From the NCBI RefSeq assembly GCF_045037415.1, contig NZ_CP173438.1: DNA of 64,000 bases; one strand, 5' to 3'. Position 1 is the stretch's first letter. Each line of letters begins with the position of its first letter. A model generated the notes under the pieces. The model did no database searches. It was not told the origin of the DNA and saw nothing but the letters and a program-made list of their open reading frames with translations. A program made the translations under genes and the position numbers. Positions 47,848 to 57,389 of this stretch are shown here, one piece after another. This DNA comes from Escherichia coli (GTDB taxonomy: Bacteria; Pseudomonadota; Gammaproteobacteria; Enterobacterales; Enterobacteriaceae).

Positions 47848-48897
47848 CTATTTATCTTTTTTTAGTATGGCCTTGAGGGCTGCGATATTGGCCCGTGCGC
47901 CTTCGGCTTCTTTTAAACGACGGCGCTGCTGGGCAAAGCGGTCAAACTCCAATTTCGCTTTGTCATCAGCGTCTTTCTTGGAGATTTTTCCTGCACCGTT
48001 TAATACATCTCTATCGTTAAAACTCAAGAACTGGTCAAGCTTATCGGCCCAGTCCTGTAAAAATACCTGCTTGCGACGCAGTGCTTGGTCTTCAGCAAAG
48101 TCGAGCCACATATTGACGATGCGATTAAGCTCTTTGATTTCGTCTTCACGCAAATAGTTCTTGGCAACAGTAACGTCTGTCTTGCGCACTTCATCGCCTT
48201 TATAGCTGGTTAAGCCCATATCCGGCTTACTGGCATCCACACGGCTGGCGATAAGCTCAGCAGCCGTCATATGCGTACAAGCATAATGCAGCTTATTCTG
48301 AATGGTTTGGAAGAAGCGGTTGGTCTCTTGGTTAGATGGCTCGTAATCAGCAGCCATGGTAAAGATTTCTTTGACTCGCAGATAAACGCGACGCTCACTA
48401 GCTCGGATATCACGAATGCGTTCCAGCATTTCATCAAAGTAATCTGGCACAGCAGAATGGCCAATGGGCGGATTTTTCAGGCGCTCGTCATCCATGACGA
48501 ATCCTTTGATTAGGTATTCTTGCAACATTCTGGTTGCCCATTGGCGGAACTGGGTGCCACGTGTTGAGCGAACTCGGTATCCTACTGCAAGAATAACCGG
48601 AAGACTGTAGTGACGAATGCTTCGCTTTACTTCTCTGCCACCTTCCAGTTGAACTTGTAAGTAATCCTTACAAGTTGAAATTTGCTCAAGCTCTTCTTCA
48701 GAATAGACAGCTTTTACGTGTTGGGTGATTGCTTGAGAGCTAACTTGATAAAGCTCTGCCATTGCAGCCTGAGAAAGCCACAAGGTGTCAGACTCAAAAC
48801 GACACTCAACGCGGGTTTGACCATCAGCACTGGTGAAAAGAACAAACTCACCTTGAGGAGCTTGTGGGATGTTATCGGCCATTGAATCAACCTTCAT
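47848..48897 (-). CDS. RhuM-family protein (349 aa)
   Basis: N-terminal pattern GEFVLFTSADGQTRVECRFESDTLWLSQAAMAELYQVS typical of RhuM-family proteins often found in Type I R-M loci; last gene of the operon. Confidence 0.7.
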   Translation of the reverse strand: MKVDSMADNIPQAPQGEFVLFTSADGQTRVECRFESDTLWLSQAAMAELYQVSSQAITQHVKAVYSEEELEQISTCKDYLQVQLEGGREVKRSIRHYSLPVILAVGYRVRSTRGTQFRQWATRMLQEYLIKGFVMDDERLKNPPIGHSAVPDYFDEMLERIRDIRASERRVYLRVKEIFTMAADYEPSNQETNRFFQTIQNKLHYACTHMTAAELIASRVDASKPDMGLTSYKGDEVRKTDVTVAKNYLREDEIKELNRIVNMWLDFAEDQALRRKQVFLQDWADKLDQFLSFNDRDVLNGAGKISKKDADDKAKLEFDRFAQQRRRLKEAEGARANIAALKAILKKDK

Positions 48898-48917
48898 ATG
48901 TTACTGATAATGGGCTA

Positions 48918-49760
48918 TTATTTATCCATAGCGGTTACAGAGTTAGCGAGCCTTTTTTCTTTGCCAAACGGGGTCGTATAGAAGCGTTGTTCAATGCCAT
49001 AAAGCAGTAACTTCAACTCATCGTCATTAGATATTTCAAACTTCTGATTTTCTTTATCGAATTTCAGCTTCTGTTCACCGCAGTAACCGTCGATATAATC
49101 AAGCATGTTAGCTTTATCGTCAGCAGACATCGCATCAAGTGTTGCCATAGCAAGGCCAATACGTTTTCTATTAGGTTTTGAGACGCTATCTACGTTGTAG
49201 TCATTACCCAACTCTATAAACTGTGCATCTAAAAACTGCTCAACTTCTTCTTTTGTTGCTTCCTTGTACAACTCATCGATACCTTTAAAAATGCTCGAGA
49301 TCGTTGCCAGATTTTTGAATATCAAGGTATCGGCCACTTTGAAGTACACTGCATCAGGTAAGGCGTTTATTACTAAACGTGTTTGGCTCTTCTCAATTTC
49401 TGCGGCTTCACCAAAAACAAGCGTTTTGCGTTTTACGAATAGGCTTGGAGTGATTTTTTGAAAGTAAAAATCATTACCTTGAATTGCAAATAAGTAGGCG
49501 ATCTTGGCGAAGTTATCTTTGGTTAAGTCATCGTAGTCTTTTGAATCATAGTCTTTTTTTAGCAGTTCAATACAAAACTCTTTTTGACTAAAGTCTTCAA
49601 TTTTAAACCATGAGTCTTCGTCAAGGTTATGGTCTGGATTGTATGGAATACAGGCATTTAAGTCGATTGTGACGGTATCAAAAAGAGATTGATCAGAAAC
49701 CAATTTGAAAATGCGTTTTTTTGCTCTAGTTTTTATATGTGCCAGTACATGGTCCATCAT
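48918..49760 (-). CDS. hypothetical 280-aa protein embedded in hsd operon (candidate defence partner)
   Basis: Start codon overlaps the upstream membrane-protein stop (TAATG); acidic, Lys/Asp-rich soluble protein; no family recognised by eye. Confidence 0.6.
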   Translation of the reverse strand: MMDHVLAHIKTRAKKRIFKLVSDQSLFDTVTIDLNACIPYNPDHNLDEDSWFKIEDFSQKEFCIELLKKDYDSKDYDDLTKDNFAKIAYLFAIQGNDFYFQKITPSLFVKRKTLVFGEAAEIEKSQTRLVINALPDAVYFKVADTLIFKNLATISSIFKGIDELYKEATKEEVEQFLDAQFIELGNDYNVDSVSKPNRKRIGLAMATLDAMSADDKANMLDYIDGYCGEQKLKFDKENQKFEISNDDELKLLLYGIEQRFYTTPFGKEKRLANSVTAMDK

Positions 49761-56815: not shown

Positions 56816-56882
56816 TGATACTACCTAAATGAAGTTAAATCGTTAAAAAAATCAGTGTATTGTTTGGTTATTATTTTGCGTT

Positions 56883-57389
56883 CTAGCTAAAGATGGCTTG
56901 CCAACGGCAAAATGCAGAACGATGTCTGTCGGTCCATTGGGTGCAAATAACATAGGTTTTTTCATCTCGCTGGGCCACTTTAGTGGTGGAGTAGCGGTTT
57001 CGCTCTTTGGCATCTTTGGCTGCACTGCGAATGTCTTCTGGCCGTGATGATTTAGCCAGTTTGAGCACGGGGAATGACAACCCAAAAATGTTGCGACAAT
57101 AGGTTAGCTGCGTGAGGTTTTCTATTTCACTCAGTGGTAGAGCATGTTCAACCAAGTCTTGGATAGCTTCGGTTATCTCTGCATTGCTGATATTGTGTTG
57201 CGTTTGTGCAACTTCCCGTGTCTCTACTTCATTTTCAAGAGCAACAGAAAACGGAAAACCTTTGGCTTGAACGGATTTAGCTAAAAAGACGTTAATAGCC
57301 TGCTCAATAGGTAAGCCCAACTCAGCAAAGATACTCGTGGCTTTTTCAAGCAGTTGAGGGTCTATATTGGTTGCCTTCATATGACTCAC
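56883..57389 (-). CDS. RelB/DinJ-like antitoxin-fold N-terminus fused to unknown C-terminal domain (168 aa)
   Basis: N-terminus LLEKATSIFAELGLPIEQAINVFLAKSVQAKGFPF resembles DinJ-type RHH domains; about 80-aa C-terminal extension unrecognised; 67 bp upstream of hsdM, same strand. Confidence 0.55.
   Translation of the reverse strand: MSHMKATNIDPQLLEKATSIFAELGLPIEQAINVFLAKSVQAKGFPFSVALENEVETREVAQTQHNISNAEITEAIQDLVEHALPLSEIENLTQLTYCRNIFGLSFPVLKLAKSSRPEDIRSAAKDAKERNRYSTTKVAQRDEKTYVICTQWTDRHRSAFCRWQAIFS

Follow-up and report, generated by a model that had tools for sequence, protein, structure and literature searches.

A probable mobile defence module of Escherichia coli that stacks a restriction-modification system of Type I, a divergent Kiwa pair and a RhuM-family gene

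Defence genes embedded in Type I restriction-modification (R-M) loci, and regulators at the head of such loci, are already established. A second defence function lies inside the Type I hsd operon in EcoprrI, which carries PrrC (PMC3874165), and in VPI-2 of Vibrio cholerae, which carries TgvAB (PMC11411939). The RRDM island of enteropathogenic E. coli E2348/69 comprises RptR, a Type I R-M system, DarTG2 and an M48 peptidase, and the hsdS/hsdR junction was described as a likely hotspot for defence cargo (PMC12255303). A guilt-by-embedding survey yielded the PDC families of phage-defence candidates, including PDC-S05 (bioRxiv 10.1101/2024.01.29.577857). In the Kiwa system, a membrane supercomplex built from KwaA tetramers and KwaB dimers detects changes that phages induce in the membrane, whereupon KwaB binds to DNA and brings replication and late transcription to a stall (PMC11785009). 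Here, we describe a locus in a 64,000-nucleotide (nt) stretch of E. coli DNA (contig NZ_CP173438.1, assembly GCF_045037415.1; hereafter, the window), in which seven open reading frames (ORFs), all on the minus strand, occupy positions 47848-57389. The locus is a stack of defences that consists of a regulator-like gene, an intact Type I R-M system, a divergent Kiwa pair and a RhuM-family gene.

Gene content and spread of the module

The region 47849-57428 was judged, with a probability of about 80%, to be a single defence module that resembles an operon, is horizontally mobile and has four layers. The coordinates of its genes and elements are listed in Table 1. Consistent with the initial annotation, which had described seven compactly coupled ORFs, four consecutive junctions (hsdM/hsdS, hsdS/hsdR, hsdR/kwaA and kwaA/kwaB) were 1-nt overlaps of the form TAATG, and the spacings between the head gene and hsdM and between kwaB and the longest RhuM ORF were 67 and 20 nt, respectively. 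Given the four overlaps, translation is likely to be coupled all the way from hsdM to kwaB, and the seven genes would be co-transcribed. All seven ORFs were full length with catalytic motifs in place, and no frameshift or internal stop was found in the genes of the block. This included hsdR and hsdM, for which the initial annotation had proposed such a check and which both aligned over their full length with homologues and models.

The 10-kb stretch was 100% identical to that of E. coli strain 219. Among 5426 complete E. coli genomes, 76 (approximately 1.4%) carried the block, always in the chromosome, and the identity was at least 99% in 75 of them and 95-99% in the remaining one. The carriers were derived from humans, poultry, pigs, cattle and the environment. 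The possibility that the block stems from a plasmid was rejected, the plasmid collection giving only short partial matches. Two Vibrio genomes (L004 and L005) contained all seven genes in identical order, and their DNA was 87-90% identical to that of the window over 47849-57428, with the similarity ending at both edges and only the hsdS target-recognition domains differing. The proteins were 93-97% (HsdM, HsdR, KwaA and KwaB), 88% (head protein), 82-84% (RhuM) and 41-43% (HsdS) identical to the Vibrio copies. In strain 219, the block lies approximately 7 kb from tRNA-Sec (selC) in a mosaic island of insertion sequence (IS) elements and integrases, as anticipated by the initial annotation, which had placed the locus on an island rather than at a core hsd position. 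The same annotation had regarded the block as a single integrated unit; the block is indeed one mobile unit, kept in two Vibrio genomes, but what it holds are separate defences stacked on one another.

Table 1. Positions of the module genes, candidate elements and neighbouring features in the window
Feature	Coordinates	Strand	Longest ORF	Description
Head gene	56883..57380	-	56883-57389	165 amino acids (aa) from ATG 57380 (RefSeq start); longest ORF from GTG 57389
hsdM	54836..56815	-	54836-56815	Predicted Type I N6-adenine methyltransferase, 659 aa
hsdS	53550..54836	-	53550-54836	Predicted specificity subunit, 428 aa
hsdR	50314..53550	-	50314-53550	Predicted restriction/translocase subunit, 1078 aa
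kwaA	49760..50314	-	49760-50314	Predicted Kiwa membrane subunit, 184 aa; start overlaps hsdR stop (TAATG)
kwaB	48918..49760	-	48918-49760	Predicted divergent DNA-binding effector of Kiwa, 280 aa; start overlaps kwaA stop (TAATG)
rhuM	47848..48882	-	47848-48897	344 aa from ATG 48882 (RefSeq); longest ORF from 48897; terminal cistron
Candidate operator of the head protein	57394..57417	-		Imperfect palindrome GATACAAAAATTACAATTTGTAGG, 14-37 nt 5' of head-gene ATG
-35-like element	57451..57460	-		TTTTTTGACT; conserved in closer relatives (E. coli, two Vibrio, Dickeya)
Putative recombination scar	50314..50331	-		Last five hsdR codons and stop (QAAVK, stop)
MobI(A/C)-like conjugative transfer gene	47404-47790	+		Converges on rhuM
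IS1	~57600-58594			Transposase ~57653-58350
Tyrosine recombinase fragment	~58367-58549			Truncated by IS1
tia and phosphoethanolamine transferase gene	58763-61195			Invasion outer-membrane protein, 251 aa, and 500-aa protein (strain 219 RefSeq names)
Tandem duplication with ISEc45	42934-46028			Perfect duplication of a 1547-bp unit; 377-aa ORFs 43187-44320 and 44734-45867
Low-G+C regions	26001-28000 and 34001-35000			33-37% guanine plus cytosine (G+C), ~50% elsewhere in the window

The presence of a Type I R-M system in M-S-R order was confirmed by Pfam and PADLOC matches. HsdM was matched by HsdM_N (4.8e-22) and N6_Mtase (1.3e-57) of Pfam, and contained motif I (DPTCGTGGF, residues 212-220) and motif IV (NPPF, residues 288-291). 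Its length of 659 aa had been noted as unusual, but residues 6-658 matched positions 3-659 of the 661-position PADLOC model PDLC03029 with 808 bits; since HsdM spans the whole model and a Photobacterium relative has 660 aa, the length is typical of the family. HsdS was matched by PADLOC Specificity_I (4e-97, residues 14-427 against a 448-position model) and has two target-recognition domains, seen as two variable blocks around a conserved centre in comparison with the Vibrio copies. At the DNA level, hsdS was conserved with these copies only at the centre (54145-54341) and at both ends, which is the usual pattern of recognition-domain exchange. HsdR contained HSDR_N, SWI2_SNF2, ResIII and T1R_D3-like domains of Pfam, the nuclease motif IDLVFF...TAELK (D...ExK, residues 144-161), the helicase motifs GSGKT (327-331) and IDEAH (439-443), and QTLSRLNR (QxxR, 728-735). 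At least 7997 homologues of HsdR were found, with lengths of approximately 1060-1078 aa and alignment over 99-100% of the length among the matches listed. Thus, methyltransferase motifs in HsdM, two target-recognition domains in HsdS, and PD-(D/E)xK and SF2 motifs in HsdR, the hallmarks of Type I genes, were all found. By homology, the M2S complex would methylate a bipartite target set by HsdS, and the R2M2S complex would translocate and cut unmodified DNA.

The family alignment proposed in the initial annotation was performed for EcoKI (Type IA) and EcoR124I (Type IC). Similarity to these prototypes with solved structures was remote, with E-values of 1.5e-13 for EcoKI HsdM, 2.4e-26 for EcoR124 HsdM and 1.4e-4 (partial coverage) for EcoR124I HsdR, which places the system in neither Type IA nor Type IC. 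HsdM and HsdR also scored below the NCBIfam hsdM and hsdR cut-offs. The IA and IC enzymes likewise have three subunits with canonical domains and motifs, and M-S-R is also the gene order of the IC family (EcoR124I), but the HsdM described here is approximately 130 aa longer. Membership in family IB, ID or IE is unlikely, as judged from the 659-aa length of HsdM in a comparison that covered the IA and IC prototypes. The criteria that separate Type I families are complementation, cross-reaction of antibodies and sequence, and further families undoubtedly exist (PMC3874165).

The divergent Kiwa pair and its attachment to Type I operons

The initial annotation had treated all seven genes as a Type I R-M locus and left two genes between hsdR and rhuM unnamed. 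These two, the fifth and sixth genes of the block, are kwaA and kwaB, as identified by PADLOC profiles and, for KwaB, by fold. KwaA was matched by PADLOC KwaA (9.3e-16, residues 2-182) and, under the cut-off, by NCBIfam KwaA (1.1e-5), and a V. cholerae homologue 86% identical to it is assigned to Pfam PF28043 KwaA in precomputed annotation. A 19-residue hydropathy scan of KwaA revealed three strongly hydrophobic regions (approximately residues 3-25, 42-67 and 111-138) and a soluble C-terminal tail, which we read as compatible with four transmembrane helices. KwaB was matched by PADLOC KwaB (7.1e-14), and its AlphaFold model had a mean predicted local distance difference test (pLDDT) score of 92.7. 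In a Foldseek search of the PDB with this model, the top six matches were all KwaB structures (9mtn, 9mrx and 9nyu), with a probability of 1.00, E-values of 2e-6 to 2e-5, TM-scores of 0.51-0.63 and identities of 10-12%; the next match had an E-value of 0.34. At the sequence level, KwaB alone had no match in Pfam, and searches of PDB chains with KwaA, with KwaB and with a 67-sequence KwaB profile returned nothing. Pfam PF16162 (DUF4868/KwaB) matched three of the 67 KwaB-family members at E-values of 1e-3 or lower, and the family comprises 534 clusters at 50% identity. RefSeq labels both Kiwa genes hypothetical, and the name carried by the KwaB family in NCBI and UniRef, 'ATP F0F1 synthase synthase', is a propagated misannotation.

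By distant homology only, the published Kiwa mechanism would carry over to this pair, with KwaA acting as a membrane sensor and KwaB binding incoming DNA and blocking phage replication and late transcription. In the literature searched, no phage or conjugation protection experiment on this KwaB clade was found. The G+C contents of kwaA and kwaB were 37-39%, as against 48% for hsdM and hsdR, which marks kwaAB as a later addition.

The genomic neighbourhood of the clade was examined with 14 closer KwaB sequences as queries in one genome per species, which gave 80 loci whose KwaB proteins were 41-96% identical to that of the window; 74 of them had upstream sequence. The neighbours were labelled with iterated profiles seeded by PADLOC-checked proteins, and PADLOC was used for HsdS proteins, to which NCBIfam is nearly blind. 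In every locus having both ends, kwaA was located immediately 5' of kwaB. A co-oriented hsdS or hsdR gene directly preceded kwaA in 39 of the 74 species-level loci (53%; hsdS in 30 and hsdR in nine), and a co-oriented R-M gene was found within two genes upstream of kwaA in six, within two genes downstream in three, and nearby in another arrangement in three. The remaining 23 loci had no Type I R-M gene nearby, and the seven annotated ones among them all adjoined other defence genes. The arrangements R-M-S-kwaAB, M-S-R-kwaAB and M-S-kwaAB-R were observed, the hsdS stop usually overlapped the kwaA start, and the linked loci spanned several phyla and several HsdS/HsdR families (PADLOC PDLC03068, 03077, 03040, 03044 and 03049). 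The cargo found after kwaB elsewhere included DRT UG5-nitrilase, TmtA and DarTG. An explicit statement of the Kiwa-Type I R-M linkage was not found in the literature searchable without subscription, in which one table, for Shewanella putrefaciens CN32, lists both systems. One linked locus, that of Suttonella ornithocola, has an HsdS (L066:7424-8668) upstream of kwaA with approximately ten tandem TAEL repeats in the central helix. In enzymes of the EcoR124I type, TAEL occurs two or three times. In Type IC enzymes, the length of this helix sets the recognition-site spacer (PMC3874165).

The position occupied by kwaAB in the window can be filled differently. In Photobacterium and in a metagenomic relative, whose HsdR proteins were 92-94% identical to that of the window, PtuA and PtuB (Septu) followed hsdR, which indicates that the region 3' of hsdR is a variable cargo slot. 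The Septu genes lie at L091:12274-15595 and L092:7145-10460, and their PtuA carries an N-terminal extension of approximately 420 aa that matches N6_Mtase in the precomputed Pfam list. In the closest relatives, the hsdS genes located before kwaA, which are of the PDLC03068 type, terminate with LLPMLMNGQVTVK followed by the stop codon. The hsdR gene of the Vibrio locus L004 ends in DMMKQGAEQVTVK and the stop (QVTVK), and the final 16 nt before this stop, CAGGTGACGGTGAAAT, are identical to those hsdS tails; the end of the E. coli hsdR (QAAVK) differs from the Vibrio tail by two bases. In the nearest HsdR relatives that lack Kiwa, the sequence departs precisely behind IFDMMK(Q), and degenerate hsdS tails precede kwaA in L002, L007 and L010, which are loci without an hsdS gene. 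The resemblance of the hsdR end to an hsdS 3' tail suggests a recombination scar. The kwaAB cassette, possibly together with rhuM, normally stands directly 3' of hsdS; from such a setting it would have carried along the final few codons of hsdS and been joined by recombination to the 3' terminus of hsdR.

The recurrent attachment raises the question of whether this Kiwa clade acts together with the Type I enzyme, or by way of it, rather than being a mere passenger. Kiwa might guard the R-M system, as PrrC does in EcoprrI, or KwaB might hold entering DNA at the membrane for the slow translocating complex. The 39 abutting loci, with their several families and phyla and their usually overlapping stop and start codons, are in line with such a dependence, as is the precedent of PrrC, whose embedded gene is under the control of the R-M complex (PMC3874165). 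The 23 loci that lack a nearby Type I R-M system speak against it, and in V. cholerae the pair is located between a PDC-M26-like/PD-(D/E)XK pair and DarTG. Furthermore, five other Kiwa operons confer protection when cloned on their own (PMC11785009), and the embedded TgvAB and DarTG also work alone (PMC11411939, PMC12255303). We regard functional dependence as unlikely. A broader proposal combines several of the present observations and is offered tentatively, as a speculation that we consider rather unlikely as a whole. It holds that Kiwa with a short KwaB is a dedicated rider of Type I systems that works jointly with the restriction complex or is under its control, as PrrC is under that of EcoprrI, and spreads via hsdS-tail recombination, and that the protein encoded by the head gene founds a family of repressors which would act on unrelated defence operons through a shared palindromic operator.

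The head gene, the RhuM gene and the surrounding island

The head gene had been described as DinJ-like. This is supported for its N-terminal domain, a probable RelB/DinJ-type ribbon-helix-helix (RHH) domain, but the protein is not the usual antitoxin; no RelE/YafQ-type toxin gene followed it in the loci compared, where the next gene was hsdM or encoded an SNF2 helicase, an HEC-03 ATPase or RhuM. The C-terminal domain of approximately 100 aa is conserved in the family and is without known fold. The family comprises 53 clusters and heads four different defence operons, namely a Type III-like R-M operon, HEC-03, RhuM alone and the present module. In V. parahaemolyticus (L084 and L089) and Lonsdalea (L087), the RHH gene is followed by genes for an SNF2 helicase, DUF4391, a Type III methyltransferase, HEC-01 and Res. 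The V. parahaemolyticus operon (L089), walked to its end, continues after Res with GmrSD and an integrase, and the Lonsdalea operon was followed to Res. In V. parahaemolyticus, the RHH stop overlaps the helicase start. The HEC-01 embedded in these operons is a pair of an AAA ATPase and DUF4276. In Aeromonas, the RHH gene heads an operon with HEC-03 and an RNA ligase, and in Dickeya, an 82%-identical RHH gene is directly followed by rhuM.

Seven upstream regions were aligned, from genes whose RHH proteins were 54-90% identical to the head protein and whose downstream operons differed. A core of ATACAAA and TTGT separated by 8-10 nt, close in front of the start codon, was invariant in all seven and reads ATACAAA...TTGTAGG in the window, within the imperfect palindrome listed in Table 1. 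The four unlike operons headed by the family and the conserved palindrome suggest that the RHH protein is probably an autoregulated repressor of defence operons, with the palindrome as its candidate operator. As the first layer of the module, it would repress the operon, likely via this palindrome upstream of its own start.

As the initial annotation had proposed, the terminal cistron is a RhuM-family gene. Its product matched Pfam Virulence_RhuM (PF13310) with an E-value of 1.4e-113 (residues 74-327 against positions 1-250 of 252) and PADLOC PDC-S05, a phage-defence candidate, with 552 bits. Both outer genes of the block, the head gene and rhuM, probably begin a little inside their longest ORFs; for rhuM, the start at 48882 is supported by the PADLOC match, which begins at residue 6, and by the Dickeya homologue, which starts at the second ATG. 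In Aliiglaciecola (L007), kwaAB and rhuM occur together without any R-M system, at 78% nucleotide identity. An earlier prediction makes RhuM a toxin domain that accompanies R-M genes (PMC3710099), and as the last layer of the module it would act as a toxin or defence effector.

These two outer genes could alternatively be a cognate toxin-antitoxin pair that was split by the insertion of hsdMSR-kwaAB, so that the host would be addicted to the module. The Dickeya locus fits such a bracket, since it corresponds to the module minus 48894-56846, the homology jumping from 56847 to 48893, and so do the predicted toxin domain of RhuM and the head protein, which is laid out like a classical antitoxin, with a DNA-binding N-terminal part and an additional C-terminal domain. 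However, the RHH family also heads operons without RhuM, both the Type III-like operons of V. parahaemolyticus and Lonsdalea and the HEC-03 operon of Aeromonas, and L007 has RhuM and kwaAB without an RHH gene. The bracket is accordingly improbable. A narrower candidate, in which the RHH protein is the obligate partner of RhuM, was downgraded; the V. parahaemolyticus operon ends with GmrSD and an integrase, without RhuM.

On the upstream side, IS1 is located approximately 215 nt from the head gene and truncates a tyrosine recombinase, possibly the former integrase of the element by which the module arrived. Beyond IS1, the tia and phosphoethanolamine transferase genes are virulence- or resistance-type cargo of the same selC island. 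On the downstream side, a MobI(A/C)-like gene converges on rhuM, and the Vibrio module copies have a distant mobI-like gene (approximately 30% amino acid identity) at the same relative position; such a gene beside the module copies is a hint of transport on a genomic island that IncC- or SXT-type elements mobilised. Farther away, the tandemly duplicated unit carries the transposase of the IS110-family element ISEc45, which is present in a single copy there in strain 219, inside an IS66-family element. The two low-G+C regions of the window presumably represent other foreign cargo.

With IS1 so close to the head gene, the block might be a decaying and silent island remnant whose genes are intact by chance and whose function was lost when IS1 cut off the promoter. 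The truncated recombinase, the failure to find a consensus promoter and the many IS fragments of the surrounding island agree with this explanation. Seven full-length ORFs with catalytic motifs and the identity of at least 99% in 75 of the 76 carriers from diverse sources do not, and the Dickeya homology, the conserved palindrome and the TTGACT element all lie inside the retained 215 nt. We consider a silent remnant quite unlikely.

Several points nevertheless count against the reading of the block as a four-layered defence module. KwaB is only 10-12% identical to KwaB proteins of solved structure and has no sequence-level match of its own in Pfam or the PDB; this divergence makes the transfer of the Kiwa mechanism a long extrapolation. 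A scan found no consensus sigma-70 promoter on the minus strand upstream of 57380 or 56815. The promoter and terminator scan returned fewer sites than shuffled sequence did, and it located no promoter on the coding strand 5' of the head gene or hsdM. IS1, 215 nt upstream of the head gene, may have altered expression, and kwaAB, with its low G+C content and as a later addition, need not be well expressed. No experimentally shown function of RhuM was found in the literature searched. The functions assigned to the module genes are predicted from homology.

The same strand, overlapping junctions and conservation of the block would also suit the reading in which a single Type I R-M enzyme has all seven genes as its components or accessories, but this is very unlikely, given that the fifth and sixth genes are kwaA and kwaB by profile and fold, that the Kiwa pair occurs without any Type I R-M system in about a third of the loci, and that close R-M relatives carry Septu instead of Kiwa.

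Comparison with known systems

The present results do not overturn current ideas on defence genes in Type I R-M loci. What is modestly new is the attachment of a divergent Kiwa clade to Type I R-M systems across families, the hsdS-tail scar, and the RHH family with its palindrome. The annotation is corrected for a locus present in approximately 1.4% of complete E. coli genomes, and Kiwa joins the systems that are habitually built into Type I R-M operons. The putative scar is a concrete sequence clue to cassette swapping, and the RHH proteins, a small family that lends itself to testing, are candidates for regulators of defence operons.

The RRDM island (PMC12255303) also consists of seven ORFs with a regulator at the head, the order hsdM-hsdS-hsdR, an embedded two-gene defence system and one accessory gene in last position, and it is flanked by IS elements on either side. 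Its cargo, DarTG2, is located between hsdS and hsdR and its end gene encodes an M48 peptidase, whereas in the window Kiwa follows hsdR and the end gene is rhuM. The homologues of its regulator RptR are approximately 79 aa long, with alpha4 as the recognition helix and TAGCTA sites, while the head protein described here has 165 aa, with an RHH-like N-terminus, a C-terminal domain and a different palindrome. The likeness between the two regulators is positional and functional only, and they are set apart by size and operator. RRDM was experimentally tested, whereas the functions of the present locus are predicted.

In GItrmA of S. putrefaciens CN32 (PMC12016545), DefenseFinder lists RM_Type_I (Sputcn32_3523-3525), Kiwa (3526-3527) and DarTG (3528-3529) consecutively, and the CN32 KwaB (P0063) belongs to the same clade as the KwaB of the window, with 83% identity. 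In CN32, DarTG follows Kiwa and the island is located at trmA, whereas rhuM follows Kiwa here; the systems are listed in that study without comment on their linkage.

The Kiwa systems of E. coli O55:H7 and ECOR8/12/49 (PMC11785009) are the same kind of two-gene unit, with a small hydrophobic membrane protein encoded 5' of a protein of approximately 300 aa, and the KwaB fold is shared with a TM-score of about 0.6. The KwaB described here has 280 aa and falls below the PF16162 thresholds. Its clade is habitually joined to Type I R-M operons, a linkage that is absent from PMC11785009, in which the words 'type I' never occur.

As in EcoprrI with PrrC (PMC3874165) and in VPI-2 with TgvAB (PMC11411939), a second defence function resides inside a Type I hsd operon in the present module. 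PrrC is physically masked by the R-M enzyme, whereas the link between Kiwa and the R-M system described here is one of gene position. From TgvAB, a restriction pair of Type IV, Kiwa differs in being associated with the membrane.

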